Source: Acidimicrobiia bacterium
Lineage (GTDB): Bacteria > Actinomycetota > Acidimicrobiia > Spongiisociales > ZC4RG35
Direction of reading: 5' to 3'
Assembly (NCBI GenBank): GCA_025937235.1
Contig: JAICRU010000002.1
Location: forward strand, 6,304-70,303
Length of the DNA stretch: 64,000 bases
Positions within the stretch are counted from its first letter, which is position 1, and the number at the start of each line of letters is the position of its first letter. Positions 10,874 through 32,028 of this stretch are shown in pieces. The notes under the pieces were generated by a model that saw only the letters and a list, made by a program, of their open reading frames with translations, ran no database searches and was not told where the DNA came from. The position numbers and the translations under genes were made by a program.

Positions 10874-10895
10874 CTGATGTTCACACTCCAAATCT

Positions 10896-11618: not shown

Positions 11619-11670
11619 GTGTGCACTCCTTGTCCTTACATGACGAGTGGTGCCCGAGGCGTATCTGGTC

Positions 11671-13296: not shown

Positions 13297-15333
13297 TCAG
13301 CCCGCCTCGGCCACCTCGCGTAGCTCGCGCCTGAGCTCGTTGACTTCGTCGCGGAGTCGCGCCGCGTATTCAAAACGGAGCTCCTTGGCAGCCTCATGCA
13401 TCTCGTCCTCGAGGCTCATGATGAGCCTGGTCAAGTCGTCACCCTCGAGGTCGATCGGCCGCCTCGGCTCGACCTCCCGTCTTCTTCTATCGCCCTTGGG
13501 AGCCTCGGTCTGAACCAATTCCAGGATGTCGGATACACGTTTTCTCACGGTCTGAGGGTCGATGCCGTGGTCCTCGTTCCAGCGAGTCTGAGCCCGTCGC
13601 CGGCGGTTGGTCTCGTTGATCGCCCGCTTCATGGAATCGGTCACGTCGTCGGCGTACATCACTACCTGACCATCGACGTTCCGGGCCGCCCTCCCGATGA
13701 TCTGGATCAGTGAGGTCTCGGACCGGAGAAATCCCTCCTTGTCGGCGTCGAGTATGGCCACCAGGGACACCTCGGGCAGGTCGAGGCCTTCCCGGAGCAA
13801 GTTGATGCCCACCAAGACGTCGAAATCGCCGAGACGGAGCTCGCGCATGATCTGCACTCGCTCCAGGGTGTCGATCTCGGAGTGCATGTACCTTGCCCTG
13901 ACCCCCATCTCGAGCAGATAGTCGGTCAGGTCCTCGGCCATCTTCTTGGTGAGAGTCGTGACCAGCACCCGCTGCTCCCGCAGGGCACGTTCCCGGATCT
14001 CATGGAGCAAGTCGTCGATCTGACCCTTGGTGGGACGGATCATCACTTCCGGGTCGACCAGACCGGTCGGGCGGATTATCTGCTCGACGACCTGAGTCGA
14101 GTGAGAGATCTCGAAGTCGGAAGGTGTGGCGGAGAGGAACACCACCTGGTTCGCCTTCTCCAACCATTCGTCGAAGCGGAGCGGCCGGTTGTCCTTCGCC
14201 GAGGGAAGTCTGAACCCATGCTCGACGAGGACTTCTTTCCGGGAATGATCTCCCTCGTATTGTCCGCCGATCTGAGGGACGGTGACATGGGACTCGTCGA
14301 CGATGGTCAGGTAGTTCTTGGGGAAGTAGTCGAGCAGGGTGTAGGGGGCCTCGCCTTCTGACCGCCCATCCAAATATCGAGAGTAGTTCTCGATGCCGGA
14401 GCAGAACCCGACTTCACGCATCATCTCCAGGTCGTAATTGGTGCGCATTCGAAGCCGTTGCGCTTCGAGCATCTTGCCCTTTCCCTCCAGTTCGGCGAGA
14501 CGCTGCACGAGCTCGATCTCGATGCCTGCTATTGCCTTCTTCATCCGCTCCCGCTCGGTCACATAGTGGGTGGCGGGGAAGACGAACAGCTCGGAAAGCT
14601 CGTCGACCACCTCTCCCGTGACCGGGTTGAGCCTGATTATCCGCTCTACCTCGTCTCCCCAGAACTGGATCCTGACGATGGTCTCCTCGTAGGAGGGGAA
14701 CACCTCGAGGGTGTCACCCCTGACCCGGAACTTGCCCCGGATCAGGTTGACCTCGTTGCGCTCGTACTGGATGTCGACAAGACGCTGTATGGCGTCCTTC
14801 ATCGGGTACTCCACCCCCTGGACGAGGCGGAGCAGCTGGCCCATGTACTGCTCGGGGGATCCGAGGCCATAGATGGCCGACACCGAAGCGACGATGATCA
14901 CGTCATCTCGCACCAGGAGACCGGCGGTGGCCGAGTGCCGGAGCCTGTCGATCTCGTCGTTGATCGTGGCGTCCTTCTCGATGTAGGTGTCGGTCTGAGG
15001 GATGTAGGCCTCGGGTTGGTAGTAGTCGTAGTAGGAGACGAAATACTCCACCCGGTTGGTGGGGAAGAGCTGACGGAACTCGTTGGCCAGTTGGGCGGCC
15101 AACGCCTTGTTGGGGGCGAGCACCAACGTCGGGCGTTGCACCTGTTCGATGGTCCAGGCGATTGTGGCCGATTTCCCGGAGCCGGTTATCCCCAGCAGAG
15201 TCTGGAAGCGGTCCCCCCGCTCGATCCCGGCGGCCAGGGCAGCAATGGCTTCGGGCTGGTCGCCGGCAGGGGCGAAGTCGGACACGATCTTGAACTCGGG
15301 CACCGAATGGAGGGTACCGGCAGGAGGTGACAA
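13297..15333 (-). CDS. uvrB: Excinuclease ABC subunit B
   Basis: 678 aa with helicase motifs (GITGSGKS), the beta-hairpin region and a C-terminal UvrC-interaction coiled coil. Confidence 0.95.
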
Positions 15334-15343: not shown

Positions 15344-15943
15344 CTATTCAGGCCTTGTCAGATACCCAACCAGTCGGCGGACCGTCGCTTCCAGCCCTTC
15401 CAGGTCGCCGTGGTTGGGCACGACCAGGGCGGCTCCCGCCAGCCACCGTGCCCGGGAGGGCTGGGCGGCCATTCGCTCCCTGACCTCCGCCTCCAACATC
15501 CCCCGTTTCATCGCCCGTCGCACCCGGACGTCGTCCCGAGCATCGACCACGATGCGCGGCCAGCCCAGCCCTGGATCGACCAGGGGCATCTCCACCGCTG
15601 CCACTCCATCAAATCCCTCCAATTCGGCTTCGATTCGGCCGAATATCAACGGATGAGTGATCTCTTCCAGGGCTCGGAGCTCGTCAGGGTTGGCGAACAC
15701 GATCCGGGCGAGCGTCTTGCGGTCTATCTCGCCTTCGAAGACGACCCCCGGCCATCTGGCGGCGACCGGGGCCAGGGCTTCATCGGCCAAGACGGCGTGG
15801 CCAACGGCATCGGCGTCGATGGTGCGAAGGCCGTGCGTCGCCAATAGACGGCGCACCTCGCTCTTTCCCGAACCGATCCCACCCGTGATCAGCCAACGTC
15901 CATCCGGAGAACTCACCGCTGCCGACGGTAGCCTTCGGAGCAT
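15344..15943 (-). CDS. coaE: Dephospho-CoA kinase
   Basis: P-loop [14 protein letters not shown] and the rest of the CoaE fold. The conserved coaE-uvrB adjacency is kept (11-nt gap). Start is ambiguous between ATG 15943 and an in-frame GTG 33 nt downstream. The ORF-track start at 16063 is an artefactual extension. Confidence 0.75.
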
Positions 15944-17453
15944 GACGGTCGCCGTTCCGGCTCCGTGGGAATTCCGCCTCCATCGCAGCGTCACTATCGG
16001 GCAGTTCGTGGTGCTCATCCTGGCGGTGGTCATCGATCTGCTGGCGAGCGGAGGCCAGCCCAACCGTGACTCTCTGTTGGCGATCGCCGTCGCGACCTTC
16101 TATGTGCTGGGGAGCGCCGCCGTCCCCGAGAGCTGGTATCGGATTCGTTTCGGGGCGGAGGCGATCACTCTGGTCGGCGCCTTCCTCACCATCACCGCGG
16201 TCACCCTCACCGGTGGGGTGGCCAGCCCCTACATCCTGCTCTCGATGGGCCCATCCATCTTCGCCACCATCTACGGGGGGCTACGCACCGGGCTGACCAC
16301 CGGGCTTCTCTCGATTGCCCTTCTCACCTTGGTCAGCCTTGCCCAAGGACAGCCACTGACCGCAGCCCTGCCCGCCATGGGCCTGTACATCGCCTTCGTG
16401 CTGCTCGTCACCGTGATCCGCCGATTGCTCGAGGATGCCCATCGCCAGGCCGGAGAGCTGGCCGAGGCGACCGAATCCGCCACCCAGAAGCTGGAGAACC
16501 TCGAGGAGATCCACGGCGTGCTGCTCCGTCTCTCGGAAGACATCTCGGCCGGCCGTCTCAATGCGGTGGAAGTGGCTGCCGACACCCTCGAGGCGATCCT
16601 GGCCCGGAGCCCGGGCTCATCGGGGCGTCTGGTGCTGAACGAAGCAGAAGGGCCCGTGATTCTCGCCTCGCGGGGTGTCCCTCCTCCGGAGCCTCATCCC
16701 TACAAGGTTCCACTCTCCACCGTCGACAGCACGGTCGGCACCCTCGAGTTGCTCACGCCTGAACCTCTCTCCAAGCCCGACCTGATCGATATCGAAGCCT
16801 TCGTGCAGCCGGTCAGCATCGCGTTCGCCAACCTGCAGCTCCTCCAGAACATCGTCGGGTCGGCGGTGGCAGAGGAAAGGATCAGACTGGCCCGGGAGAT
16901 GCACGACGACATCGGACCTTCTCTCGCCTCCTTGGGTCTTGCCCTCGACATGGCCGCGATGCAGCAAGCCCATCACCCTGAGCTGTCGGCAGATCTGAAG
17001 GTGCTTCGCACCAATGTCACCAAGCTCGTCGAAGATGTGCGCGCCTCGGTGGCCGATCTCCGGATCGCTCCGGGGCCCACCCTGACGGCCAGGCTGCTCC
17101 AGTCCACGGCCGGGCTCGATGGCGGCCCCCAGGTCGTGGTGGACCTCGAGGAGCGACGACCGCCACGGCCGGCTGTCATCGCCGACCTGACCTCGATCAT
17201 CACCGAAGCGACCAGGAACGCTCACAACCATTCTGGGGGCTCTCAAATACTGGTCTCGGGTCGCATCGACCGCAGCCGCGGGGTCTGCTCAGTGATCGAC
17301 GATGGCGCCGGCTTCGATCCCACATATGAGCCGGACGGTCATTTCGGCCTCATAGGCATGCGGGAACGTGCCGAGAAGATAGGGGCGAAGATCAGTTTTC
17401 AACCGACACCCGGAGGAGGCACCACCGTGAGAGTTGAATGGGGTAACCGATGA
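15942..17453 (+). CDS. Sensor histidine kinase, NarL/LuxR-partner type (HisKA_3 + HATPase_c)
   Basis: Multi-TM N-terminus, a GAF-like middle region, an H-box (REMHDDIGPSLASL) and N/G-box ATPase motifs. Start is the internal ATG at 15942. The ORF-track start at 15657 runs antisense through coaE. The stop overlaps the response-regulator start as ATGA. Confidence 0.8.
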   Translation: MTVAVPAPWEFRLHRSVTIGQFVVLILAVVIDLLASGGQPNRDSLLAIAVATFYVLGSAAVPESWYRIRFGAEAITLVGAFLTITAVTLTGGVASPYILLSMGPSIFATIYGGLRTGLTTGLLSIALLTLVSLAQGQPLTAALPAMGLYIAFVLLVTVIRRLLEDAHRQAGELAEATESATQKLENLEEIHGVLLRLSEDISAGRLNAVEVAADTLEAILARSPGSSGRLVLNEAEGPVILASRGVPPPEPHPYKVPLSTVDSTVGTLELLTPEPLSKPDLIDIEAFVQPVSIAFANLQLLQNIVGSAVAEERIRLAREMHDDIGPSLASLGLALDMAAMQQAHHPELSADLKVLRTNVTKLVEDVRASVADLRIAPGPTLTARLLQSTAGLDGGPQVVVDLEERRPPRPAVIADLTSIITEATRNAHNHSGGSQILVSGRIDRSRGVCSVIDDGAGFDPTYEPDGHFGLIGMRERAEKIGAKISFQPTPGGGTTVRVEWGNR

Positions 17454-18088
17454 TTCGCGTCATGATCGCCGATGATCACCAGCTGTTCGCAGAGGGGTTG
17501 AGCCAGGCGCTGGACATCCTCCCCGACACCCGTGTCGTGGGTGTCGTGGAGTCCGGTCCGGCCCTCGAGGCGGCACTGGAGACCCAACCGGCCGAGGTGT
17601 CGATCGTGGACATCGAGATGCCCGGCGGTGACGGGATCGACACCATCTCCGGACTGGGACGGAGGACCAACGCCATCGTCGTGTCGATGCATGCCAACGA
17701 AGAGCAAAAGGAGCGCGCTTTCAGGGCCGGCGCCAAGGGCTTCTTCTCCAAGGGGGTGCCGCTCTTGACCCTGGCGGCCGCGGTGCGAGCGGTGGCGGAC
17801 GGTCAGGACCTGATATCGCTCGATGAGACAACTCGAGATGAGCTGCTCGAGCACTACGGGCAGGCCCGTCTCGATCCGGGTGCGGCCTCGCTCACCGAGC
17901 GAGAGAAGGAGATCCTGCAGCTGCTCGCCGTCGGTGTCTCTGCCACAGATGAGCTGGCTGACCGTCTCTACATCTCGCAGAAGACGGTCAAGAACCACCT
18001 CGCTTCCATCTTCCAGAAACTGGCCGTGAGCGACCGGACCCAGGCCGCCATCGAAGCAATCCGACTTGGGATAGCCCGGCCCAACTAG
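17450..18088 (+). CDS. NarL/LuxR-family response regulator (receiver + HTH)
   Basis: Receiver domain (MIRVMIADDHQLF...D...K) and a C-terminal LuxR HTH (LTEREKEILQLLAVGVSATDELADRLYISQKTVKNHL). Confidence 0.9.
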   Translation: MIRVMIADDHQLFAEGLSQALDILPDTRVVGVVESGPALEAALETQPAEVSIVDIEMPGGDGIDTISGLGRRTNAIVVSMHANEEQKERAFRAGAKGFFSKGVPLLTLAAAVRAVADGQDLISLDETTRDELLEHYGQARLDPGAASLTEREKEILQLLAVGVSATDELADRLYISQKTVKNHLASIFQKLAVSDRTQAAIEAIRLGIARPN

Positions 18089-18165
18089 TCACATGTTGCC
18101 AGGGTTATCGAAACGATTTTGGGCCTTGAGGCCCATCATCGAATTCCACGATAGGACTTACTCTG

Positions 18166-18366
18166 ATGCGGGTGAGCAAGGGAGTTGAAGTGTACGCCAG
18201 GGTTATTAGGTACCTCGGCGACGAGAAGGGTGCTTCTCTCGTCGAATACTCGCTCCTCGTGATCCTCATAGCCATCGCGGCCTTGACCGCCGTGGCTTAC
18301 TTCGGCGGTGAGCTGAGCAGCACATACTCAGACATCAATTCGAATCTGGTGGACGCGGGGCCGTAG
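18166..18366 (+). CDS. flp: Flp-family type IVb pilin (divergent paralogue 1)
   Basis: Flp prepilin motif G/ASLVEYSLLVILIAIAAL, read as the prepilin-peptidase cleavage site plus a hydrophobic helix. An alternative in-frame GTG start at 18190 has a better RBS (AAGGGAG) and gives a 16-aa leader. Confidence 0.7.
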   Translation: MRVSKGVEVYARVIRYLGDEKGASLVEYSLLVILIAIAALTAVAYFGGELSSTYSDINSNLVDAGP

Positions 18367-18376
18367 GGGATAGTTC

Positions 18377-18395
18377 CCGGGACCCATTGTCCCGG
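18377..18395 (+). terminator. Hairpin just downstream of flp-1
   Basis: CCGGGAC-ccatt-GTCCCGG, a 7-bp perfect stem starting 11 nt after the flp-1 stop. No U-tract follows. Confidence 0.3.
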
Positions 18396-18455
18396 TGGTA
18401 GGTAGGGCTACTTTGCCCGATTGCAAGCCAAGGCAACAACCCAAGGAGGGGTTCC

Positions 18456-18629
18456 ATGTTTGCTCTGTGGACTAAGTTCACCAGCTGGATTCAGGAGGAG
18501 AAGGGTGCCTCGATGGTTGAGTACGCCCTGCTCGTCGTCCTGATCGCCATCGTTGCTCTCGTCGCCGTGCAGCTCGCCGGCAATGAGGTCTCCTCGACCT
18601 TCAGCGAGATCGGTTCCGGCCTGGCGTAA
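18456..18629 (+). CDS. flp: Flp-family pilin (paralogue 2); 57 aa, below the ORF-track cut-off
   Basis: ATG 18456 preceded by AAGGAGGGG. Product is MFALWTKFTSWIQEEKGASMVEYALLVVLIAIVALVAVQLAGNEVSSTFSEIGSGLA. Found by manual translation. Confidence 0.75.
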   Translation: MFALWTKFTSWIQEEKGASMVEYALLVVLIAIVALVAVQLAGNEVSSTFSEIGSGLA

Positions 18630-18648
18630 GCGTCAGAGATTGAGTATG

Positions 18649-18682
18649 AGAGGGGGCTCGCACTTCGGTGCGGGCCCCCTCT
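18649..18682 (+). terminator. Strong stem-loop with UUCG tetraloop downstream of flp-2
   Basis: AGAGGGGGCuCGCAC-UUCG-GUGCGgGCCCCCUCU: a roughly 15-bp GC-rich stem capped by a UUCG tetraloop, 20 nt after the flp-2 stop. Confidence 0.45.
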
Positions 18683-18819
18683 CATGTGTGCGACTGCTGC
18701 CTGGAGCACAACGGGATCTGGTCGCGCCGGTCATTTTTCCGATATTCCGACTCAGGTTTTTGACCGAACGGGTCGATATATCGATGCAAGCCAATTTCGT
18801 TGACCCAAGGAGGGGCTTC

Positions 18820-18993
18820 ATGCTTGCTTTGTGGACCAAGGTAGTGAGCTGGGCGAAGGATGAGAAGGGTGCCTCGATGGTTGAGTACGCCCTGCTCGTT
18901 GTCCTGATCGCCATCGTCGCTCTCGTCGCCGTGCAGCTCGCCGGCAATGAGGTCTCCTCGACCTTCAGCGAGATCGGCTCCGGGCTCAGCTGA
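18820..18993 (+). CDS. flp: Flp-family pilin (paralogue 3), near-identical to paralogue 2
   Basis: ATG 18820 preceded by AAGGAGGGG. Product is MLALWTKVVSWAKDEKGASMVEYALLVVLIAIVALVAVQLAGNEVSSTFSEIGSGLS. The ORF track reported it only as the tail of a 146-aa TTG-started ORF. Confidence 0.75.
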   Translation: MLALWTKVVSWAKDEKGASMVEYALLVVLIAIVALVAVQLAGNEVSSTFSEIGSGLS

Positions 18994-19014
18994 GCAACGC
19001 TCAGATCCAACAGT

Positions 19015-19040
19015 GAAGGGACCTCTTCGGGGGTCCCTTC
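19015..19040 (+). terminator. Stem-loop with UUCG tetraloop downstream of flp-3
   Basis: GAAGGGACCuC-UUCG-GgGGUCCCUUC: an 11-bp stem with one G.U pair and a UUCG loop, 22 nt after the flp-3 stop. Confidence 0.4.
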
Positions 19041-19136
19041 TCCTTGGGGCCATAGGCCTAACGACTCATTGCCGCCATCCGAAGGGAATCGTACCTTTGT
19101 GTCCGTAGGACCGGTCGCAGATCAACGGGAGGCATC

Positions 19137-19301
19137 GTGTCACGGTTGTGGACCAGGCGGTTAAGCGAGGAAACGGGCGCCTCCATGGTGGAATACGCCT
19201 TGCTCGTGGTCCTCATCGCCATCATCGCCCTCCTCGCCATCAGGCTTGCCGGTACTCAGGTCTCCGAGGCCTTCAGCGAGATCGGCTCTGGTCTCCAGTG
19301 A
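19137..19301 (+). CDS. flp: Flp-family pilin (paralogue 4), GTG start
   Basis: GTG 19137 preceded by GGGAGG. Product is VSRLWTRRLSEETGASMVEYALLVVLIAIIALLAIRLAGTQVSEAFSEIGSGLQ. There is no upstream in-frame ATG before a TAA at 19059. Confidence 0.65.
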   Translation: MSRLWTRRLSEETGASMVEYALLVVLIAIIALLAIRLAGTQVSEAFSEIGSGLQ

Positions 19302-19307
19302 CCGAGT

Positions 19308-20654
19308 TCATGGTCTCAGAACGACGAAATCCTGGTCTTCGTATTCCTCCGACCAGCCGGTAGCCTCGAGCTCGTCGACCAGATCTTCGTCGGCCCTCAG
19401 GAGCACCTGTCCGATACCATCCCGCTCGAACACCGGCTCCCAGTCACGCTTCAGATCCCTGACCTCTACGTATTCGATCATCCGATCGCCATAGAGCTCG
19501 GCCCGATCGTCGATGTAGACCAATCGCTCCGGGCCCTCAGCCCAGATCAGATAGCCGCCTGCGCTGTCGTCGTGGAAGGTGGGCACATGGGCCAGCCACC
19601 CCGCGGCGGCGACCGGAAAGCGCTCCTCGTCGATCGACCCGTCGGAGATGATGAACCACGGTGTGACGAGCACAACGAGGCCAAAGACGGCTGCCGCGGG
19701 CGCAGAGAACCGTTTCCTGGCGCCGGCGGCCATGTCAGCGAGGGCGACACCCATCAGGGGCACAAGAGCGATCCACGCCGGCGGGACAGCCCGGGTCGCG
19801 GTCAAGGCAAGGAGCAGAAAGGGAACGAGGATGATCAGGTGACGAGGGGTGACTCGTTCTCGAACGGCGCCTATCACGATCAGGCCGATCCCGATCAGGA
19901 ACGGGGCGAAGACCACCGACAGGAGCTCAGGGCGTCTCCACTCGGAGAGAAGGGCCAGGGCAGGCCCGGCGTCGGAAAAATCGAGCAGGAACTCGAGAAC
20001 CCCCAACCCGTGCGCGGTGAGGAACGTGGCCAGCCCGGCGACGATCGCCGTCGGGAGCGACTTCCACTCCTTCTCGAGGAGGATGGTCAGACCCACATAG
20101 GCCAGCCCGATCACGAAGCTCCCATGAACGGAGGCCCAGATCCAGAAGAGAAAAGGGATGGTCCATCGGGTGACGGGTCGGTCCCACGCCACGACCACCA
20201 GAACGAAGAGGGCAAAGGAGAACAAGACCGGCCTGGGGACCAGGAAGGAGATCATCAGCAGCGTGGACAGGGCCACGATGATCGCCGTCGACCATTCGCT
20301 CCTCGACCGGCGGTAGGCGACCAGCCCGATCCCCAAGAATGTGATCGAGCTGAGCAGGAGCATCATCGGTGGCACGAAGCCGAGGCCCCAGTTGGACTCG
20401 CCCCAGGCATAGACGAGCTCGGCCAGCCAGCTCTGGGTCAGCCAGCGCTCCCCCAGCATGGTGAAGGAAAAGGGGTCGGCGGTGAGTACCTCTCCGGCGT
20501 TGGCCTGCAGCTCTCCTGCCCGGACATGCCACAGGAAAGAGTTGTCCCGGATCGGGGCCCAGGCATCGATCACCAAGGCCACAAACGGCACCAGGAGAGC
20601 CAGGTGCGCCAGAGAGAAGTGTCGCTGAGTCGGTCCCGGCGCCGCCAGCGCCAT
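19308..20654 (-). CDS. Uncharacterised polytopic membrane protein (about 10 TM plus a roughly 108-aa C-terminal soluble domain); last gene of the tad operon
   Basis: The start ATG overlaps the tadC stop as TGATG, so it is translationally coupled. There is a large first extracytoplasmic loop with conserved Asp residues and an acidic C-terminal domain. No A24 prepilin-peptidase motif (GGDVK) and no recognisable Tad family signature. Confidence 0.6.
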   Translation of the reverse strand: MALAAPGPTQRHFSLAHLALLVPFVALVIDAWAPIRDNSFLWHVRAGELQANAGEVLTADPFSFTMLGERWLTQSWLAELVYAWGESNWGLGFVPPMMLLLSSITFLGIGLVAYRRSRSEWSTAIIVALSTLLMISFLVPRPVLFSFALFVLVVVAWDRPVTRWTIPFLFWIWASVHGSFVIGLAYVGLTILLEKEWKSLPTAIVAGLATFLTAHGLGVLEFLLDFSDAGPALALLSEWRRPELLSVVFAPFLIGIGLIVIGAVRERVTPRHLIILVPFLLLALTATRAVPPAWIALVPLMGVALADMAAGARKRFSAPAAAVFGLVVLVTPWFIISDGSIDEERFPVAAAGWLAHVPTFHDDSAGGYLIWAEGPERLVYIDDRAELYGDRMIEYVEVRDLKRDWEPVFERDGIGQVLLRADEDLVDELEATGWSEEYEDQDFVVLRP

Positions 20655-21595
20655 CAGTTGTTGGCGAATGCGCCGCCGATCGAAATGGCGGCCGGGCCCA
20701 ACAACACGATGAAGAGGGCCGGGAAGATGCAGAACACCAGCGGGAAGACCAGCTTCACCGGCGCAGCGAACGCCTTCTCCTGGGCTCGCTGGCGACGCTT
20801 GACTCGCATCTCGTCGGCCTGCACCCGCAGCACCCGGGCGATCGTCACACCGAAGGCCTCGGCCTGGATCATGGCCAGGATGAAGGAGCGGAGCTCCTCG
20901 AGATCGGTGCGGTCCATCAGATGCCTCATGGCGTCGCGTCGGCTCACACCCACCCGGGTTTCTTGGAGCATCCGGAAGAACTCCTCCGAGAGCGGTCCAG
21001 GAACGGTGGCGACGACCCGTGACAGGGCGGCATCGAAACCGAGCCCGGCCTCGACCGAGATGACCAGCAGGTCGAGCACGTCGGGCAGGGCCCGCAGCAT
21101 TGTCTGACGCCGGTCATCGATCTTTCTTTGCAGCCATGCATCGGGACCGAAGAAGCCGAGCACGATCGGCATGCCGAATAGGAAGATCCGCTGCATGCTG
21201 TCACTGCCGAAGTCGGACAGGAAGAAAGCGGCGAACAGACCGGCCACCGTGGTCAGGAGCTTGATGACGATGAACGATGGGGCGTCGAGGTTGCCGGGGT
21301 TGCCCGCCAGCACCAGCTGATGCTGCTTCTTCTCCAGGTAACCCACCGGGGTGAACCGGCGCAGGAAACCAGAGAGCTTGAGCACCACGGGGCCGATCGT
21401 CCGTTGTGCCAGGGGCTTGGACAGCTCCTCGTCGCGGACCGAGCCGGAACTGGCCCGGCCGTAGACGGCGAGCCTGTTGTTCATGTCCTCCCGGGCCCTG
21501 GTGACACCGAGCCCGATCCAGACGATTACGAAGAAGACCAGAGCCGACACCGTGACCACGGCGAGCATCTGACCGTCGAGTGCTGTGATGTTCAT
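20654..21595 (-). CDS. tadC: Tad pilus assembly inner-membrane platform protein TadC (T2SS-F/GspF domain)
   Basis: 313 aa with a single GspF-type domain flanked by TM helices. Follows TadB and is coupled to it; the upstream stop overlaps this start as ATGA. Confidence 0.8.
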   Translation of the reverse strand: MNITALDGQMLAVVTVSALVFFVIVWIGLGVTRAREDMNNRLAVYGRASSGSVRDEELSKPLAQRTIGPVVLKLSGFLRRFTPVGYLEKKQHQLVLAGNPGNLDAPSFIVIKLLTTVAGLFAAFFLSDFGSDSMQRIFLFGMPIVLGFFGPDAWLQRKIDDRRQTMLRALPDVLDLLVISVEAGLGFDAALSRVVATVPGPLSEEFFRMLQETRVGVSRRDAMRHLMDRTDLEELRSFILAMIQAEAFGVTIARVLRVQADEMRVKRRQRAQEKAFAAPVKLVFPLVFCIFPALFIVLLGPAAISIGGAFANN

Positions 21596-21708
21596 ACTTC
21601 GATGTTCACGATCTTCCGGAGCCAGAAAATTCCACCGGCCATGAGGATGAGTCCTGCGACGATGGCGATCCGGCCCAACGTCGCGGCGAGCAGCGGCTGG
21701 AAGTATTA
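21592..21708 (-). other. In-frame continuation of the TadB domain after a TAA codon (final transmembrane helix of TadB)
   Basis: Immediately after the TAA at 21708..21706 the same frame reads YFQPLLAATLGRIAIVAGLILMAGGIFWLRKIVNIEV and ends with TGA overlapping the tadC ATG. This is the canonical TadB C-terminal helix. Confidence 0.6.
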
Positions 21709-23547
21709 ACGGTTGTTGAAGCAGAGGAAGGCACCCAAGGCGAATGGCAGAGAGCCGAGCACGATCGCCGAGATCCGGCCCTCGGCGGTGAGCGCCTTGA
21801 TCTCTCCCTTGAGCCGGTTGCGGGCCAGCATGGTGTCGGCCACCGTCTGCAGAACCTCGGCAAGGTTGCCCCCGACCTCACGCTGGATCTCGATTGCCAT
21901 CGTGGCCCACTCGAAGTCCTTCGAGTTCGTGCGTTCCACGATTCCCTGCAGCGCTTCTGGGACCGAGCGACCGAGTCGGGACTCGACGACGGCTCGGGAG
22001 AACTCCCGCGCTGTCGGATCCGGCGCTTCGGCAGCCACCGCTTCGATTGCCTGGAGCAGGGAGTAGCCGGCCCGGAGGGAGGTCGACAGCAGGGTGAGCG
22101 TGTCGGGCAGCTGCTTCTCGAACCTCTTCCGCTCTCGGTTGCCGGCCCACCTGACCAGGATCATGAACCCGAGGAGCATGATTCCGAAGGTGGCCAGGCC
22201 CCACAGCGGCGAGTTGAAGATGGCGACGAAGACACCGCCCACCGCGGCGAGCCCGATCATGGCCAGGATCGCCTCGCCGGGGGACATCGGCACGTTGGCC
22301 TGCTCCAGGGCGGCGTTCACTCCCGAGAGCATCCCGCGCCGGCGTACCTCTTCTTCGGCAGCCTGGCTGAAGCGGTTGATCAGAGGGATCCGCTGCAGAA
22401 GCGGCTTCTTTTCCTCCTCGCCCGTTCTGGACCGCCGCCCATAGGCCTGGAGCCGTTTGGCGAAGCGACCCCCTCCCTGCTCCTCTTCACGGCCGAAGAG
22501 GATGATGATGAAGAGGAAGGCGGTCAGACCGATCCCTGCCGCACCGATGAGGGCCAGGTTGGTGATGCTGAGGGGGGAGCTGCTCTCGACGACGCTTCCC
22601 GTCACAGGGACCGGGACGGTTGTCGTTGTCGGGGCCATCGTGGTGGTGGTCGCATACCCGCTCACTGGGAAGGCGACCGTCGAGGTCAGGCCGCCGGGGT
22701 AGGTGGCCGCGAACTCGGCTTCGCCGGGCGCGGCCACCGGGGAAACGAATCGGGCAACGAGGGTGTTGCTGATCTCACGGCTGATCTGGCCGTAGAGTCC
22801 GGAGAGCTGCGCCGGATCGGGAGTCGACAGGAACAGCCCGCCGCCCGCGGTGGCGAACGCCGACACCGCCTCGGGGTTGAAGTCGGGTGACTCCAGGGCC
22901 ACGCCGAACACACGGGCATCTCCGGCCTCGATCGCTGCGATCGCCGCGTCCGCCGTGGCGGCAGACGCGGTGTCCTCGCCGTCGCTGAGCACGATCATGT
23001 TGTTGAGCTGGGTCGGGGGAACGCCCTCGAACAGCGACATGCCGAGGATCACACCGTCGTTGAGGGCTGTCTCACCATCGGCGACGAGTGCATCGACCCG
23101 CTCGTGCAGCACCTCGGCATTGGTGGTGAACCCGGTCTGGACCACCGCGGTGTCGGCGAAGCTGACTATCGCGATCGAGTCCTCGGGGCGCTTCTGGTCG
23201 ATGAAGCTGTTGGCAGCCGTTTTGGCCGAGTCCATCGGCGCTCCGAGCATCGAGCCTGAGGTGTCGATCACCAGAACCACACCCACCGGGACGCTGGACT
23301 CGCCGAGCGGGGCCACCTCTAGATCCGAAACCGGTTGGCCGTCGACCGTGACCGCCAGCTGGGCCGGGTCCGGGGCCTCGGGAAGGTTCCGGAACTCGAC
23401 CACCATCTGGGTCTGGCCGCCTTCGGCATAGCGCGAGCCGTTGATATCCACGATCTCGATCTCGGGCGCAGTGGTCTGCGCGATCGCAGCGGTGCTCACC
23501 CCGAGCACGAGGGCGCCGACCAGGGCAGAGAGACGTCTCAAGCTCAT
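21706..23547 (-). CDS. tadB: Fusion protein: signal peptide, von Willebrand factor A domain, Thr/Pro-rich linker, TM, then a TadB (T2SS-F) platform domain. The TadB domain is truncated by an in-frame TAA.
   Basis: N-terminal signal peptide (LSALVGALVLGVSTAAIAQ). VWA MIDAS motif DxSxS (VIDTSGSM). Low-complexity TTTTMAPTTTTVPVPV linker, then a TM helix and a GspF-type domain. The start overlaps the tadA stop as ATGA. Confidence 0.7.
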   Translation of the reverse strand: MSLRRLSALVGALVLGVSTAAIAQTTAPEIEIVDINGSRYAEGGQTQMVVEFRNLPEAPDPAQLAVTVDGQPVSDLEVAPLGESSVPVGVVLVIDTSGSMLGAPMDSAKTAANSFIDQKRPEDSIAIVSFADTAVVQTGFTTNAEVLHERVDALVADGETALNDGVILGMSLFEGVPPTQLNNMIVLSDGEDTASAATADAAIAAIEAGDARVFGVALESPDFNPEAVSAFATAGGGLFLSTPDPAQLSGLYGQISREISNTLVARFVSPVAAPGEAEFAATYPGGLTSTVAFPVSGYATTTTMAPTTTTVPVPVTGSVVESSSPLSITNLALIGAAGIGLTAFLFIIILFGREEEQGGGRFAKRLQAYGRRSRTGEEEKKPLLQRIPLINRFSQAAEEEVRRRGMLSGVNAALEQANVPMSPGEAILAMIGLAAVGGVFVAIFNSPLWGLATFGIMLLGFMILVRWAGNRERKRFEKQLPDTLTLLSTSLRAGYSLLQAIEAVAAEAPDPTAREFSRAVVESRLGRSVPEALQGIVERTNSKDFEWATMAIEIQREVGGNLAEVLQTVADTMLARNRLKGEIKALTAEGRISAIVLGSLPFALGAFLCFNNR

Positions 23548-24902
23548 CGGCCCCTTGCGAATGGCTCGGGATCGAACAGGTCGGCGGGGAGCCGGATGCC
23601 CTGGTTCTCGAGATCTTGGGAGAAGGTCGGCCGGATCCCGGTCGCCTTCAAGCGGCCTTTGTAGACACCGTCCTCGTCGACCCCCATTCCGTAGTCGAAG
23701 AGGAAGATGTCCTGGAGGGTGATGATCTCCCCTTCCATGCCTTCGACCTCGGTGACATGAGTCACCCGGCGGGTGCCGTCCTTGAGACGGGACACGTGGA
23801 TGATCAGGTCGACTGCAGCCGCGATCTGCTCCCGGATGGCACGCACGGGGAGATCGAAGCCGGCCATCAGCACCATGGTCTCGATACGGGAAAGGGTGTC
23901 TCTCGGGCTGTTCGAGTGCACAGTCGTCAGGGAGCCGTCATGACCGGTGTTCATGGCCTGGAGCATGTCGAGGGCCTCGGCGCCTCGAACCTCACCGACC
24001 ACGATCCGGTCCGGACGCATACGCAGTGTGTTCCTGACCAGGTCACGGATGGTGACGGCGCCCTTGCCCTCGATGTTGGCCGGCCGTGACTCCAGCGTCA
24101 GGACGTGCTCCTGATGGAGCTGGAGCTCGGCGGCGTCTTCCACGGTCACGATTCGCTCGTCGCCGGGGATGTATGAGGACATCACGTTGAGGGTGGTGGT
24201 CTTACCGGAACCGGTACCGCCGGAGATCAGGACGTTGAGCCGGCCCCGGACACATGCTCTGGCGAAGTCGGCCACACGCTGGGTGATCGTGCCGAAGTTG
24301 ATCAGGTCCGCTTCCTGATAGGGATCCACCGCGAACTTTCGGATGGTTAGGAAAGGTCCGCCGATCGCCAGCGGGTGGATCACGGCATTGACACGAGACC
24401 CATCAGGGAGGCGGGCGTCCACCATCGGGGTCGCTTCGTCGACGCGACGACCGATCTGGCCGACGATCTTGTCGATGATGCGGCGGAGGTGGACCTCGTC
24501 GACGAACTTGACGTCGGACAGGACGATCTTGCCCCGCTTCTCGAAGTAGACGTCGTAGGGGCCGTTGGCCATGACTTCGGTCACGTCCGGGTCGTTGAGC
24601 AACGGGTCGATTGGCCCGTAGCCGAGCACATCCGAGGCGATCTCGTTGAGCAGGGCACGACGGTCGGCGGAGGTGAGGGGAAGACCCTGCTCCTGGTCGA
24701 CCGCCCATTCCAGCATCTCGAGGACGCGAAGACGGAGCTCGGCGTCCGACATCTGGCGGTCGTACAGGGTCGGGCCCAGCTCCTCGACCACCTTGAAGTG
24801 AAGACGTCCCCTGAGCTCGCTCAGGGCATCCGAGCGAGTGGAGCTGACCTCCTGGGTCTCTGTCTGCCTGGCGGCTGCGACTCTCTCTGAAAGCGATGGC
24901 AC
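23544..24902 (-). CDS. tadA: Tad pilus assembly ATPase TadA/CpaF (secretion NTPase family)
   Basis: Walker [16 protein letters not shown], Asp box, Walker B and His box ([14 protein letters not shown]), all typical of CpaF/TadA. Confidence 0.9.
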
Positions 24903-24918
24903 TGTTATTTACCTTCCA

Positions 24919-26103
24919 CTATTTGCGACCGAAGAGCCCGCCCCTGGACGTGCCTTCGGGAATCTTCCCGGCGATCAACTCGGCGACACTCTCGAAACCC
25001 TTGGCGATCTTCCCCCTGGGGTCTGTCTCGACGATGGGGCGTCCCTCGTTGACCGAGTTGGGGACGGCGGCATCGGAAGGGACCGAGGCCTTGATCTCCA
25101 TCTTGAGGGCGCTCTCGATCTCCTTGTTGTCCAGCTTCGCCTTCGAGTTGTTCCGATTCATGACGAGCTGGACGTTCTGGGTCGAGAACTTGAGCAGCCG
25201 CAGGGTCTCCAGGGCGAGCTTGGCGTTTTTGACCGAAGGGAGATCCATGTCCACCACCATGAGCACGTGGTCCGCCTTCTCGATGAGGGACAGGATCAAC
25301 TCGTCCAGCATCGAGGCCGTGTCGACCACGACGTAGTCGTAGCTCTCCTGGAGGATGTCGAGCATCTGCATCAGGCCTGCCGTGGTGATGTCGTCGGCGA
25401 AGGCCGGCTCGAGGGGAGCAGCCAGTACCTTCAGGCCGCTGGGGTGCTCCGTGAGCAGAGAGTCGAGCATCTCTCCATCCAGGTGATGGAGCTCATGGGC
25501 TGCGTTGACCATGGTGAACCTCGGCTCCAGTTGGAGGAGGAGGCAGACATCCCCGAACTGGAGGTCTGCGTCGACCAGCACCACTTTCTTGTCCGGGAAC
25601 CGGTTCAAGAGGAGGGCGACGTTGGTGGCGGTCACGGTCTTCCCGCTCCCGCCCTTGGCCGAGGTCACGGTCACGATCGCTCCCCGCTGCTCGGTGCGAA
25701 CGGGCTCGGCCGCCGGCTTGCCGGCGGTGCGCCGCTTCAGCACGTCGTGAGCGAACTGCTCGATCGCCGCCTCGATCTTCGACTCGTCGAGAGGGGCCTC
25801 GATGACATCGGAGACACCGGCTCGCATGGCACCACGGAGGAGATCGGCCGTGACCGTGTCGGCGACCATCATCAGGATCAGAGCCGGATCCTGGTTGTGC
25901 AGGTTCCGGATGTGCTCCAGCGACTCGTCGTTCGAGAACGAGGGGCCGAGCAGGAGCATCCTGAGGTCGCCTGACTCCGCGGTCTGACTCGCCTCCTCTA
26001 TGGAGCGAGCGACCGGGAGCCGGCCCTCGAAGAGCTCCTTGGCCGCGGAGACGAATTCATCGTCTTTGTCCACGACCAGCAGGTTGTGCTCAGCCATCGA
26101 CAT
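24919..26103 (-). CDS. tadZ: TadZ/CpaE: atypical receiver-like N-domain fused to a ParA/MinD-type ATPase
   Basis: Deviant Walker A (TSAKGGSGKTVTATNVA) and an N-terminal CheY-like ARD domain. Confidence 0.8.
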   Translation of the reverse strand: MSMAEHNLLVVDKDDEFVSAAKELFEGRLPVARSIEEASQTAESGDLRMLLLGPSFSNDESLEHIRNLHNQDPALILMMVADTVTADLLRGAMRAGVSDVIEAPLDESKIEAAIEQFAHDVLKRRTAGKPAAEPVRTEQRGAIVTVTSAKGGSGKTVTATNVALLLNRFPDKKVVLVDADLQFGDVCLLLQLEPRFTMVNAAHELHHLDGEMLDSLLTEHPSGLKVLAAPLEPAFADDITTAGLMQMLDILQESYDYVVVDTASMLDELILSLIEKADHVLMVVDMDLPSVKNAKLALETLRLLKFSTQNVQLVMNRNNSKAKLDNKEIESALKMEIKASVPSDAAVPNSVNEGRPIVETDPRGKIAKGFESVAELIAGKIPEGTSRGGLFGRK

Positions 26104-26116
26104 GGTCGAACCTCAA

Positions 26117-27040
26117 TCAGCTTCCAAATATGTCGTCCAGCAGATTCCCGCCGAACAGGTTGAGTGTGGTCACACCGGTGGTCTCCACCTCGACGAAGTC
26201 GCCGGGGACCAGGGTCAGCCAGATCGAGCCGTTCTCGGATGCGTAGGCAATCCGCTCGGCCTGCTCAGGTGTGACCTCGAGAGTGAACGTGGTGTCGTTA
26301 CCGGTGTCTTCCTCGACGGGCTCACCCTCGGGGGTGGTGTCGCCGGTCGTTGCCGGATCGGCCTCCACCGTGTCGGGGGCGTCCTGATCGGGCCTGATGT
26401 CACGCCCGGTGGCCATCACCGGCAGCCCCTGCAGAACGAAACGGGTGTAGGTCACCACCGCGATGGTCTCCTCGCTGGGAGGCTGGCCTTCGACCGGAGC
26501 AGCCGGCTGCTCGGCGATGCCGCTCAGCTCCTCGGGGAGCAGGTCCTCGGGGATGTCGATGGTGATGATCATATTGACCCTGTCGCCTGGCTCTACGAAC
26601 CCGTTGATGCCCCTGATGTTGTCGGTGGAGATGGTCATGGCCTGCTTGCCGGAGGGAATCTCCTCGGCGAGAGGGATCACGTCGACCGTGATGGAAGTCC
26701 ACTGTGACTCGGTCAGGATCGACCCGGCCGCGATCGGGCCCGCTGCGACGCGATCGGCGAGCACCTGGTTCAACTGCTCAGCGGAGGTGATGGCGCCGAC
26801 CGGCACATCCTCGGCCTGGTCTTCGCTCAGGGCGATCTGCGTCCCGCCGCTGTTGAAGTCCGAGAGGAGGATGGCCCCGTCCGTGCCCTCGGGGATGGCC
26901 TCCCCGGCGCGGTAGACCTCGACGATCTCCTGGCCTTCGGTTATCTCGTTCTCGACGTTCTGGAGATAGTTCCAGACAGCCCATGCGGCGAGCCCGGCCA
27001 GTATCAAGGCCACTAACAAGACGATGGCTCTCCTACCCAT
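26117..27040 (-). CDS. cpaB: Flp pilus assembly protein CpaB/RcpC (SAF + RcpC domains)
   Basis: N-terminal TM anchor (MGRRAIVLLVALILAGLAAWAV) followed by SAF and RcpC-like domains and an acidic Thr-rich tail. Start at ATG 27040 is preceded by GAAGGGGA. The ORF-track start at 27091 lacks an RBS. Confidence 0.75.
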   Translation of the reverse strand: MGRRAIVLLVALILAGLAAWAVWNYLQNVENEITEGQEIVEVYRAGEAIPEGTDGAILLSDFNSGGTQIALSEDQAEDVPVGAITSAEQLNQVLADRVAAGPIAAGSILTESQWTSITVDVIPLAEEIPSGKQAMTISTDNIRGINGFVEPGDRVNMIITIDIPEDLLPEELSGIAEQPAAPVEGQPPSEETIAVVTYTRFVLQGLPVMATGRDIRPDQDAPDTVEADPATTGDTTPEGEPVEEDTGNDTTFTLEVTPEQAERIAYASENGSIWLTLVPGDFVEVETTGVTTLNLFGGNLLDDIFGS

Positions 27041-27262
27041 TGAGTCCCCTTCGTATTTCCCCTGGGAAGGCGTTCCACCCGATGTCGGCACATGCCCGAC
27101 GACATGCTACCGATGGGCAGGCGCCATTCCGGTGCTTCGAGTCCGATTCCACAGGGATTGTTCGGACCGTATGAGACCAGTCTTGAGGGTTTCGCGGCAC
27201 ATTCCATAGTTCGGTCGCCCCATATGCGCGACGTCCGACGGCCGGCTGATCTCGGGTAGGTG

Positions 27263-27286
27263 TAAGTGACCCCTCGGTCACTTACG
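27263..27286 (-). terminator. Perfect 10-bp hairpin overlapping the rpsA stop codon
   Basis: GTAAGTGACC-cctc-GGTCACTTAC, a perfect inverted repeat. The rpsA TGA lies within the downstream arm. It separates rpsA from the tad promoter region. Confidence 0.45.
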
Positions 27287-31412: not shown

Positions 31413-31437
31413 GAACTGACGGTAGTGGCCTTGCCGG

Positions 31438-31740: not shown

Positions 31741-32028
31741 CTACGTTGGAACCAGGTGAGACCGGAATCGCAGTGCCGGCAGGCACTGGAGTCGATCGAG
31801 GCGGAAGTCAAGGACTGCGAGATCGGTCGACGGCTCCCGTCCGGCACCAACCGCTACCGGTACACGAGATACATGTTCACCAACGCGTCGACCGACATCC
31901 TGGGCATCTTCACCGATGCCCTCGATCTGCTCGGCGTGCACTGGACCCAGACCAATACCCGTACCATCTCGATCGCCCGAAGAGACGACGTCGCGTTCCT
32001 GGACAGCTTCATCGGTCCGAAGTGTTGA
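31741..32028 (+). pseudogene. 3' remnant of a protein-coding gene (no start codon); unidentified product
   Basis: Strong GC3 bias. The sequence ...SGTNRYRYTRYMFTNASTDILGIFTDALDLLGVHWTQTNTRTISIARRDDVAFLDSFIGPKC* is protein-like, with Y/F/N/T/I usage atypical of GC-rich noise. There is no in-frame ATG/GTG before the MFTNAS Met. Confidence 0.3.

Follow-up and report, generated by a model that had tools for sequence, protein, structure and literature searches.

The stretch of 64,000 nucleotides of Acidimicrobiia DNA analysed here (the window) carries what is, judging from the sequence, a real and nearly complete Tad/Flp (type IVc) adhesion-pilus gene cluster, and this cluster appears to be an ancient, vertically inherited fixture of the Acidimicrobiia rather than a recent island. 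Two of its features are undescribed: a platform protein bearing a VWA domain predicted to be external, and a translationally coupled membrane glycosyltransferase belonging to an unnamed family. Our literature search found no paper describing a VWA-TadB fusion, the extra membrane protein or the absence of peptidase and pseudopilin genes. We assign a probability of about 0.72 to the overall reading, i.e. that this is a resident Acidimicrobiia Tad/Flp locus, derived from an old insertion between rpsA and coaE and inherited vertically, that it works by the mechanism proposed below, and that the in-frame TAA in its tadB gene is an error or a recent lesion.

A preliminary description of the window had identified a self-contained Tad/Flp module, flanked by rpsA and coaE and equipped with a two-component pair of its own, and every component that it listed was confirmed at the position given (Table 1). 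The four backbone genes polA, rpsA, coaE and uvrB are likewise present, in the same relative order and orientation as in the actinobacterial gene string. In M. tuberculosis this string (Rv1629-Rv1633) is contiguous, whereas in Acidimicrobiia 11.3 kb of tad genes lie between rpsA and coaE, and in the window a 6-kb glycan cluster parts uvrB from uvrA. The module contains Flp prepilins, TadA, the platform paralogues TadB and TadC, TadZ and RcpC/CpaB, as is required of a Tad system, and the Pfam and NCBIfam matches of the tad components are well over the cutoffs. The non-canonical traits claimed for it, namely the VWA-TadB fusion, an extra polytopic membrane protein and the lack of peptidase and pseudopilin genes in the window, are also present.

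Table 1. Features of the tad locus and its flanks (window positions)
Feature	Coordinates	Strand	Evidence or remark
uvrB	13297-15333	-	flank
coaE	15344-about 15943	-	flank
sensor histidine kinase, 503 aa from ATG at 15942	15942..17453	+	Pfam HisKA_3 1.6e-11, HATPase_c 1.3e-8; TM scan
NarL/LuxR-type response regulator	17450..18088	+	Response_reg 6.8e-19, GerE 2.2e-16
flp1, divergent Flp paralogue	18190..18366 (longest ORF from 18166)	+	Flp_Fap 6.5e-7, 29.5 bits, under cutoff 32.2
flp2, major-type Flp prepilin, cleavage motif EEKG/ASMVEYALLV	18456..18629	+	Flp_Fap 37.4 bits vs cutoff 32.2
GC-rich hairpin after flp2, 18-nt arms, 94% complementary	18646..18685	+	repeat search
flp3	18820..18993	+	Flp_Fap 43.7 bits
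hairpin after flp3, GAAGGGACC...GGTCCCTTC	19015..19040	+	read from sequence
flp4, GTG start	19137..19301	+	Flp_Fap 36.9 bits
orf448, polytopic membrane protein, 448 aa	19308..20654	-	no Pfam/NCBIfam match
tadC, platform protein	20654..21595	-	T2SSF 7e-20
VWA-TadB fusion, full frame 651 aa	21592..23547	-	VWA_2 1.8e-15, T2SSF 1.9e-20; read-through translation
patch of 56 bp	21667..21722	-	10/26 differences vs 99.78% identical contig L001
tadA/cpaF, secretion ATPase	23544..24902	-	Pfam T2SSE 4.1e-65
tadZ/cpaE, receiver-like N-terminal domain + ParA/MinD ATPase domain	24919..26103	-	AAA_31, CbiA, ParA, weak Response_reg; CpaE_hom_Actino 9e-24
cpaB/rcpC, single N-terminal TM + RcpC domain	26117..27091	-	RcpC 7.2e-21; TIGR03177 pilus_cpaB 103 bits vs cutoff 71
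rpsA	27278-28699	-	flank
polA	28800-31604	-	flank

The genes are arranged in two convergent units, a minus-strand operon cpaB-tadZ-tadA-tadB-tadC-orf448 and a plus-strand unit HK-RR-flp1-4. Within the operon, the cpaB/tadZ and tadZ/tadA gaps are 13-16 nt, and the next three junctions are overlaps of 1-4 nt, namely ATGA at tadA/tadB, ATGA at tadB/tadC, where the tadC ATG overlaps the TGA of the full-length tadB, and TGATG at tadC/orf448, where 1 nt is shared by the tadC stop and the orf448 start. The start of cpaB/rcpC is uncertain, its closest relative being annotated from the position equivalent to 27020. In the plus-strand unit, the kinase begins with five TM helices, followed by a cytoplasmic linker domain and then by HisKA_3 and HATPase_c, and its stop overlaps the regulator start (ATGA). 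This pair stands beside flp/tad genes in 40+ related loci with the HK-RR-flp order conserved, and the regulator may activate the flp genes directly downstream of it. All four flp genes encode the motif G/AS(M/L)VEY, and three of the four pass the Pfam Flp_Fap cutoff. The start of flp1 at 18190 is preceded by a ribosome-binding site, AAGGGAG, and since several relatives (e.g. L004 and L016) also have a divergent flp copy beside the regulator, flp1 is a candidate minor pilin. The flp3 gene is 90% identical to flp2 at the DNA level, and the hairpin after flp2 is possibly a terminator or an RNA-stability element.

The fusion of a VWA domain to TadB is real, but by no means confined to this genome: Actinomycetota proteins built in this way number at least in the hundreds, those of the cultured Knoellia and Nocardioides among them, and nearly all of 120 listed homologues are 640-660 aa long with the same domains. 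The protein comprises a Sec signal peptide (residues 1-24), a beta-sandwich, the VWA domain (90-252), a linker (~297-324) that is Thr/Pro-rich and disordered in the AF2 model, a TM helix and a full TadB platform (T2SSF 484-608). The MIDAS motif is intact (D95-x-S97-x-S99, T160, D189), and its residues are invariant in 46 sequences, whereas some Iamiaceae and Acidimicrobiales fusions (L040, L058) have a degenerate MIDAS. In eleven Acidimicrobiia loci that share the gene order around tadB, the TadB is plain, with no VWA part at all. As the VWA part is absent from these 11 loci and its MIDAS is degenerate in others, its role would seem to be dispensable or variable. The Sec-type signal peptide, the positive-inside loop after TM1 and the disordered Thr-rich linker together suggest that the VWA domain is exported and lies outside the cell.

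The vWA domains of TadG in Aggregatibacter and CpaL in Caulobacter carry a MIDAS and a pilin-like N-terminal module, and have been modelled at the pilus tip (PMC11870444). The fusion shares with them a Tad-dedicated vWA domain with a MIDAS outside the cytoplasmic membrane (a location that is predicted here; PMC11870444), but unlike them it starts with a Sec signal peptide and forms a covalent part of a platform protein, so that it should stay behind on the cell surface, where the filament is based. We considered whether it is a vWA minor pilin of the TadG/CpaL type, and rejected this, as a Sec-type signal peptide stands at the N-terminus in place of a pilin-like module and the polypeptide runs on into a full TadB. 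In Knoellia the fusion coexists with TadE-like and TadG-like genes; therefore, TadG and the fusion are not simple substitutes for each other.

The extra membrane protein, orf448, had been described as having 10 TM helices. The protein is indeed present, but in its model some 11-13 helices span the membrane and a globular domain of ~110 aa follows at the C-terminus. The confidence of the model is medium (pLDDT 75), and prediction is poor for the extracytoplasmic loops. The membrane part has the GT-C fold, and orf448 is, on this model, a GT-C-fold membrane glycosyltransferase of an unnamed family. Neither orf448 nor 48 diverse members of its family matched any Pfam/NCBIfam entry, so that by sequence orf448 falls in none of the named GT-C families (PMT, STT3, ArnT/GT83, GT87, Emb and others), and a search of the PDB sequences with the orf448 profile gave no match at E <= 10. 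Acidic and basic residues are invariant in the orf448 alignment; in 48 sequences of 23-61% identity, D60 is invariant and D37 nearly so, both in the loop after TM1, which is poorly modelled. With 7,628 clusters at 50% identity the family is large, and most of its members may be unrelated to pili. Compared with the oligosaccharyltransferases of archaea (AglB), eukaryotes (STT3) and bacteria (PglB) and with the PMT protein O-mannosyltransferases, orf448 is much shorter, and has neither a WWDYG motif nor an STT3/PMT Pfam match. No N-x-S/T sequon occurs in the Flp sequences of the window.

The module was also said to lack a prepilin peptidase and pseudopilins, and this holds within the window. Among 48 window ORFs scanned with Pfam, a set outside which six long ORFs fall, no match to Peptidase_A24 or to the TadE family (PF07811) was found, and a six-frame scan of the window for prepilin-like motifs returned nothing besides the four flp genes. 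Nor did unassigned membrane ORFs of the related loci, when screened heuristically, yield a prepilin peptidase; TadE-like genes were seen in the Knoellia and Mycobacteriales-MAG loci, but the screened Acidimicrobiia loci yielded none. We count it against our preferred reading that the required peptidase was not found in the window, and that, with TadE/F pseudopilins absent, the priming of the filament is unaccounted for. A prepilin peptidase encoded away from the other tad genes has precedent among monoderm Tad systems, the tadV of Bifidobacterium breve being an example (PMC6916266). The locus resembles those of B. breve UCC2003 and Micrococcus luteus in its short Flp pilins with G/XXXXEY, its TadA, TadB with TadC, and TadZ, and in having no secretin. 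It differs from them in having no tadE/tadF minor pilins, and has as traits of its own CpaB/RcpC, four flp genes, a dedicated HisKA_3/NarL pair, the VWA-TadB fusion and a GT-C gene in translational coupling with tadC.

Because the module splits a set of genes that other Actinomycetota carry without a break, and is functionally self-contained with its own regulators, it could be taken for a mobile adhesion module that was recently inserted into the polA-rpsA-coaE-uvrB backbone, as the term "island" in the preliminary description implied. We regard this as very improbable. The GC content of the module (0.58-0.68) is like that of its flanks, and its tetranucleotide distance to the rest of the window (0.114) falls within the range of control segments of the same size (0.087-0.140). 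No integrase, transposase or other mobility gene was found in it or right beside it, the nearest tRNA gene is 5 kb past its boundary, and the only direct repeats in the part searched (18050-19320) are the flp copies themselves. Moreover, in a sample of 80 related genome loci, 34 of the 49 with enough upstream sequence to judge were linked to rpsA, and the order polA-rpsA-cpaB-tadZABC-orf448-flp-RR-HK-(coaE)-uvrB is held across the Acidimicrobiia, Microthrixaceae and Iamiaceae MAGs included, down to 31-37% TadB identity (overall range 31-95%). All the relatives used in this work are uncultured MAGs, with the exception of the distant Knoellia and Nocardioides. An old insertion followed by vertical inheritance fits the class-wide order. 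Alternatively, the locus could be a decaying pseudogene cluster, as there is indeed an in-frame TAA at 21706-21708, codon 614 of 651 in the VWA-tadB gene, which would cost TadB its last transmembrane helix and uncouple the translation of tadC; the window also differs from L001 by a 1-bp indel and a second cluster of changes. Decay, however, seems unlikely to us. Every other tad gene is of full length, and the proteins from CpaB to TadA, the part covered by L001, are 100% identical to those of L001. Reading past the TAA to the TGA at 21592-21594 restores the length of the homologues. The stop arises from GAC>TAA, L001 having Asp there, in a 56-bp patch whose clustering of differences has a Poisson P of about 1e-16. 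All 10 differences in the patch are transversions, against 7 transitions and 3 transversions among the isolated differences elsewhere (Fisher p = 1.8e-4), which points to a non-evolutionary process, and L001 itself shows odd changes within the same patch. TAA terminates only one of 51 window genes. The stop noted earlier is thus present, yet it is not a designed feature; it is probably an assembly or sequencing error, or else a very recent lesion, and not a case of recoding. That the patch is the target of a diversity-generating retroelement was also considered, and was rejected since the substitutions are not adenine-specific, ancestral G, C and A having all been changed whichever strand is read; no reverse transcriptase was found among the scanned window genes.

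Other alternatives concern what the locus does. It is possible, albeit doubtful, that orf448 is a GT-C enzyme of cell-envelope glycans, an arabinosyl- or mannosyl-transferase or a lipid-modifying enzyme, and that its co-transcription with the tad genes serves envelope remodelling or reflects mere synteny, with no pilin being modified. Against this stand the 1-nt coupling to tadC, and the adjacency of orf448 to tadC, which is found in 25 of the 28 rpsA-linked loci and in none of the 15 unlinked ones. In addition, the best structural matches of orf448 are protein-modifying GT-Cs, its C-terminal domain being AglB-like, and Ser29 and Ser33 of the mature Flp are conserved in these loci: loci with an adjacent orf448 have each of them in 40 of 48 sequences, compared with 4/15 (Ser29) and 1/15 (Ser33) in loci without orf448, a pattern that is fully confounded with phylogeny, every orf448-positive locus being from the Acidimicrobiia. 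We thus infer that orf448 is an Flp O-glycosyltransferase, gene linkage and the serine pattern being what points to the acceptor. Loci whose TadB has no VWA part still keep orf448, so the enzyme does not need the Thr-rich linker as its target. A precedent is TfpW, a GT-C pilin arabinosyltransferase that modifies Ser/Thr of Pseudomonas aeruginosa group IV pilins on the periplasmic side (bioRxiv 10.1101/2020.04.19.049825). The two enzymes are alike in being polytopic, of GT-C type and encoded beside pilin genes, but TfpW belongs to a type IVa system, and orf448 is located in the assembly operon and not in that of the pilins; orf448 has no detectable sequence similarity to named families. As for the pilus itself, it might serve DNA uptake rather than adhesion, since the Tad pili of the actinobacterium M. 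luteus are required for natural transformation (PMC4322843). We think this quite unlikely: no comEA-, comEC- or dprA-like ORF was found among the scanned window ORFs, and an external VWA/MIDAS domain together with a pilin-modifying enzyme would better fit surface binding, although both of these points are weak either way.

We therefore favour an adhesion pilus that could work as follows. The membrane-embedded HisKA_3 kinase would phosphorylate the NarL-type regulator, which would turn on the flp genes, and a TadV-type peptidase encoded elsewhere would cut the four Flp prepilins after the Gly in G/ASMVEY. Using a polyprenyl-phosphate-linked sugar on the outer face of the membrane, orf448 would O-glycosylate the short exposed C-terminal tail of Flp, with Ser29 and Ser33 as candidate sites. 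The TadA ATPase, placed by TadZ, would power the TadB/TadC platform for the polymerisation of Flp, and CpaB would form an extracytoplasmic collar. The VWA/MIDAS domain, exported by its own signal peptide and tethered to TadB by the Thr/Pro-rich linker at the base of the machine, would supply the metal-dependent binding or anchoring role that has been proposed for the vWA domain of TadG/CpaL elsewhere. If the stop in tadB is real, this strain has a crippled platform.

The locus is a Tad/type IVc pilus locus, set between rpsA and coaE, and its parts as listed in the preliminary description, including the regulator pair of its own, were borne out by ORF listing, third-position GC analysis and Pfam/NCBIfam scans of the window (see the table). 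The edges of the proposed island fall at the start codon of the kinase (15942) and in the spacer between cpaB and rpsA (27262). The reading frames overlap at the tadA/tadB (ATGA), tadB/tadC (ATGA), tadC/orf448 (TGATG) and kinase/regulator (ATGA) junctions, and the locus therefore resolves into an assembly operon of six genes and a unit that combines the regulators with the pilins. An AAGGAGG ribosome-binding site precedes both flp2 and flp3, each of which is followed by a GC-rich hairpin. The start codons of coaE (-) and the kinase (+) abut or overlap at 15913-15943, so that the promoter of each must sit within the other gene; promoter consensus scans of this high-GC genome gave nothing usable. 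The kinase has five N-terminal transmembrane (TM) helices but lacks any large domain outside the membrane. As the kinase-regulator pair also lies beside flp or the tad operon in unlinked actinomycetotal loci, i.e. those away from rpsA, its distribution supports a dedicated role in regulating the pilus locus. Elsewhere in the window, a 539-aa ThyX (38788-40407, +) contains two Thy1 stretches, is about twice the usual length and looks like a tandem fusion, and the genes at 54349-61453 (-), namely divIVA, a YGGT-family gene, sepF, a YggS-like gene, a laccase-domain protein gene, ftsZ and ftsQ, are the end of a division/cell-wall cluster, an ordinary housekeeping context.

Genes of the Tad locus and its flanks (window positions), and segments of the VWA-TadB protein (residues)
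Feature	Position	Strand	Remark
uvrB	13297-15333	-	left flank
coaE	15344-~15943	-	left flank
HisKA_3 kinase	15942 (ATG)-17453	+	converges on orf448
Response_reg+GerE regulator	17450-18088	+	converges on orf448
flp1	18190-18366	+	
flp2	18456-18629	+	
flp3	18820-18993	+	
flp4	19137-19301	+	
orf448	19308-20654	-	
tadC	20654-21595	-	
VWA-tadB (VWA+T2SSF)	23547 down to TAA at 21706-21708	-	
tadA	23544-24902	-	
tadZ	24919-26103	-	
cpaB/rcpC	26117-27091	-	
rpsA	27278-28699	-	
polA	28800-31604	-	
VWA-TadB segment	residues 1-24		Sec-type signal peptide (AIA/Q)
VWA-TadB segment	residues ~25-85		beta-sandwich
VWA-TadB segment	residues 88-260		VWA domain (model pLDDT 80-90)
VWA-TadB segment	residues 262-295		additional beta-strands
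VWA-TadB segment	residues 297-324		Thr/Pro-rich linker, disordered
VWA-TadB segment	residues 328-351		TM helix
VWA-TadB segment	residues ~352-421		basic cytoplasmic stretch
VWA-TadB segment	remainder		full TadB

The region had been described as an island embedded in a conserved backbone, a view that neither its composition nor its synteny favours. The GC content of 15942-27262 (0.58-0.68) matches that of the flanks, and its tetranucleotide distance to the rest of the window (0.114) falls within the range of control segments of the same size (0.087-0.140). Neither the region nor its immediate surroundings yielded an integrase or transposase gene, and the direct repeats in the one stretch searched (18050-19320) were the flp copies only. 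The single RNA gene detected in the window by Rfam and ARAGORN, a tRNA-Leu(CAA) gene (32048-32134, +), lies 5 kb past the boundary, between polA and a YgfZ/CAF17-like gene. A VWA-TadB profile scan of one genome per species yielded 80 loci, onto which the window proteins were mapped by tblastn. The order polA-rpsA-cpaB-tadZ-tadA-tadB-tadC-orf448-flp (1-5 copies)-regulator-kinase-[gap]-uvrB recurs throughout the Acidimicrobiia, where the gap before uvrB (~650 bp) fits coaE. This order is kept as TadB identity falls from 95% to 31-37% and RpsA identity to ~60%, and was found in a Microthrixaceae chromosome (L028), in Iamiaceae MAGs (L040, L042) and in a 6.3-Mb Acidimicrobiales chromosome (L058); the tad cluster is linked to rpsA in 34 of the 49 loci with enough upstream sequence. 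Conserved synteny and unremarkable composition thus argue that the module is an ancient insertion which now marks the class, and that it is neither recent nor mobile; what looks like an island within a conserved backbone can turn out to be an ancient lineage marker. In the Microthrixaceae chromosome (OY970242.1), a second, inverted tadZ-tadA-tadB-tadC set (17938-22167) directly follows the kinase of the rpsA-linked locus; its tblastn matches are fragmented, and it may be degraded. The only clear interruption seen between rpsA and cpaB is ~2.3 kb of extra sequence in an Acidimicrobiaceae MAG (L011, 2698-5018).

The fusion of a VWA domain to the platform protein TadB is real, as had been noted, and is common to many Actinomycetota. 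Alignments of plain TadB orthologues start at residue ~318-346 of VWA-TadB; therefore the ordinary TadB N-terminus lies outside and the fusion is topologically simple. The MIDAS residues D95, S97, S99, T160 and D189 are invariant among 46 sequences, and the DxSxS motif is kept in most of the distant fusions, being degenerate in two Acidimicrobiales/Iamiaceae examples. Such fusions also occur in Coriobacteriia, Micromonosporaceae and Mycobacteriales MAGs and in the cultured Knoellia sp. CPCC 206450, whose locus also carries TadE-like (PF07811) and TadG-like (PF13400) genes, and Nocardioides jiangsuensis. Because it is spread over the Actinomycetota, while eleven Acidimicrobiia loci encode a plain TadB without the VWA part in an unchanged gene order around tadB, the fusion is old, widespread and variably retained. 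We found no paper mentioning VWA-TadB; in databases it is named only "type II secretion system F family protein", and a PDB sequence search with the VWA ectodomain gave generic VWA matches only. The closest functional analogy is provided by TadG/CpaL, whose vWA domain is fused to a pilin-like module and has been placed at the tip of the pilus by modelling (PMC11870444), whereas the domain of VWA-TadB is tied to the platform. The VWA domain would stay at the base of the machine, flexibly tethered, and serve there in metal-dependent binding or anchoring, which is the least secure piece of the proposed mechanism.

The in-frame TAA in tadB is indeed present, but the Tad system does not carry it by design. 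Read through it, the frame encodes a 651-aa protein whose terminal TGA overlaps the tadC start, and nearly all of the 120 VWA-TadB homologues listed have the same VWA+T2SSF architecture and ~640-660 aa. In the nearest relative, a MAG contig (L001, GCA_025937995.1) that is 99.78% identical to the window across 12.2 kb, the codon is GAC (Asp). Of the 26 substitutions between the two, ten fall within 56 bp (21667-21722; Poisson P ~1e-16 for this cluster) and six within 31940-32175; all 16 clustered differences are transversions, compared with 3 of the 10 isolated ones, the other 7 being transitions (Fisher p = 1.8e-4). Judged against the outgroup L002 (89% identical), derived changes in the 56-bp patch occur in both the window and its relative. 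In addition, TAA terminates only 1 of 51 window genes. The stop is therefore unlikely to be biological, and these patterns point to an error, in sequencing or in the consensus, within a troublesome stretch as the probable explanation; otherwise it would be a very recent nonsense allele, through which the last transmembrane helix of TadB would be lost. Recoding or read-through was rejected in view of the Asp in homologues, the GAC in the nearest relative and the error-like, transversion-only patch. A diversity-generating retroelement was excluded because the changes are not adenine-specific; no reverse transcriptase was found among the scanned window ORFs. The second cluster of differences (31940-32175), together with a 1-bp indel at ~32548, surrounds the tRNA-Leu gene, and a 396-aa 'gene' annotated across this stretch in the relative looks spurious.

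The 448-aa membrane protein encoded by orf448 has no Pfam or NCBIfam match; 48 diverse family members gave nothing consistent against Pfam at E <= 1, and the family profile found no PDB sequence at E <= 10. Its close homologues number at least 1,200, all source names shown among the 120 listed reading "hypothetical protein", and the family comprises 7,628 cluster representatives (50% identity, E <= 1e-3). An AlphaFold2 model (pLDDT 75, pTM 0.70) matches GT-C glycosyltransferases, the Foldseek matches being yeast STT3 (E 4.6e-5) and ArnT (6.5e-5), followed by AftA, PglB and EmbC. Across an alignment spanning 23-61% identity, H43, G47, D60, W76, R141, P142, W173, H177, R288, D382, R384 and W434 are invariant and D37 is nearly so; the acidic residues of the first outer loop, taken together with the basic residues, would fit a GT-C active site using a polyprenyl-phosphate-linked donor. 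The gene is strongly linked to the Tad locus: it overlaps tadC by 1 nt and, among loci with sequence on both sides, adjoins it in 25 of 28 rpsA-linked and none of 15 unlinked loci. Among the loci seen, this Tad-coupled orphan GT-C is specific to the Acidimicrobiia.

As to its substrate, we consider orf448 a pilin glycosyltransferase with a probability of about 0.45, a role whose best precedent is that of TfpW, the GT-C enzyme which glycosylates the group IV pilin of P. aeruginosa and whose gene lies beside pilA (bioRxiv 10.1101/2020.04.19.049825). Ser33 of mature Flp is present in 40 of 48 distinct sequences at orf448-adjacent loci versus 1 of 15 at loci without orf448, and Ser29 in 40/48 versus 4/15; the lone Ser33 exception has a distant orf448 homologue 5 kb away. 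As this pattern is confounded with phylogeny, it is only a pointer to Flp as the most likely target. The main rival, a role in cell-envelope glycan synthesis, is possible though doubtful. Glycosylation of the Thr-rich VWA-TadB linker is disfavoured, since orf448 is kept in loci whose TadB lacks the VWA part or linker, and the linker is therefore not a required substrate; OST-like N-glycosylation is disfavoured as well, the window Flp sequences having no N-x-S/T sequon, and the GT-C fold rules out orf448 as the missing prepilin peptidase. Between uvrB and uvrA (7035-13230, -) lies a sugar-modification cluster encoding a sulfatase/LtaS-like protein (519 aa), a GT2, a GFO/Idh/MocA oxidoreductase, a DegT aminotransferase, a hexapeptide acetyltransferase and a 398-aa membrane protein with a weak PIG-U (GT-C-like) match, which could be a candidate source of a lipid-linked amino-sugar donor for a GT-C such as orf448. 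Past uvrA (755-4098, -) are further envelope-glycan genes, for an MBOAT acyltransferase (2704-4098), a 312-aa protein without a family and an NAD-dependent epimerase/dehydratase.

The reported lack of a peptidase and of pseudopilins holds for the window: neither Peptidase_A24 nor TadE family members matched any of the 48 ORFs scanned (six long ORFs were left out; those at 43407-46913 and 51170-54361 lay outside the scan), and a six-frame search for prepilin-like N-termini returned the four flp genes only. A heuristic screen of related loci found no A24 peptidase in unassigned membrane ORFs, and its sole TadE match was in a Mycobacteriales MAG. From the Flp motif G/ASMVEY it follows that a peptidase gene lies elsewhere in the genome, and an unlinked prepilin peptidase is normal in monoderm Tad systems (B. 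breve; PMC6916266). The pseudopilin set is absent from the locus, and the lack of TadE/F is unusual. The regulator-proximal flp copy is divergent in the relatives compared, as flp1 is in the window, making flp1 a candidate minor pilin. Relatives carry one to five flp copies (L001 and L002 at contig ends; L004, 14498-15893; L016, 3271-4608); since the L001 and L002 assemblies end in or just before the array, flp counts in MAGs are probably too low.

The locus is thus a class-wide Acidimicrobiia variant, and of the suggestion that it represents an undescribed Tad system, what stands are its undescribed components, the VWA-TadB fusion and the coupled orphan GT-C. A bolder and, in our judgement, unlikely reading would make it a distinct subtype, in which a sequence-orphan GT-C with an AglB-like C-terminal domain would O-glycosylate Flp at Ser29/Ser33 as an obligate, translationally coupled component of the machine, and the tethered MIDAS-VWA and a divergent Flp paralogue would stand in for the priming and tip complex of TadE/TadF/TadG. 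If true, pilin glycosylation would for the first time be seen as a built-in step of a Tad system, alongside an adhesin or anchor carried on the platform. For a pilus specialist, the coupling of the GT-C and the VWA domain on the platform would be worth testing, but they do not overturn current understanding.

Tad pili serve as major organelles of adhesion and surface sensing, and their monoderm versions are, to our knowledge, known from two or three model species only. Soil, freshwater and marine sediment harbour abundant Acidimicrobiia, which are almost uncultured, and we know of no described surface organelle in this class. If the inferences hold, a class-wide, syntenically fixed Tad locus would offer a handle on acidimicrobial attachment, an orphan GT-C family of thousands of sequence clusters with no Pfam model would gain its first functional context, and VWA-TadB would provide a natural experiment on the site of action of the Tad vWA domain, be it the tip of the pilus or the base of the machine.
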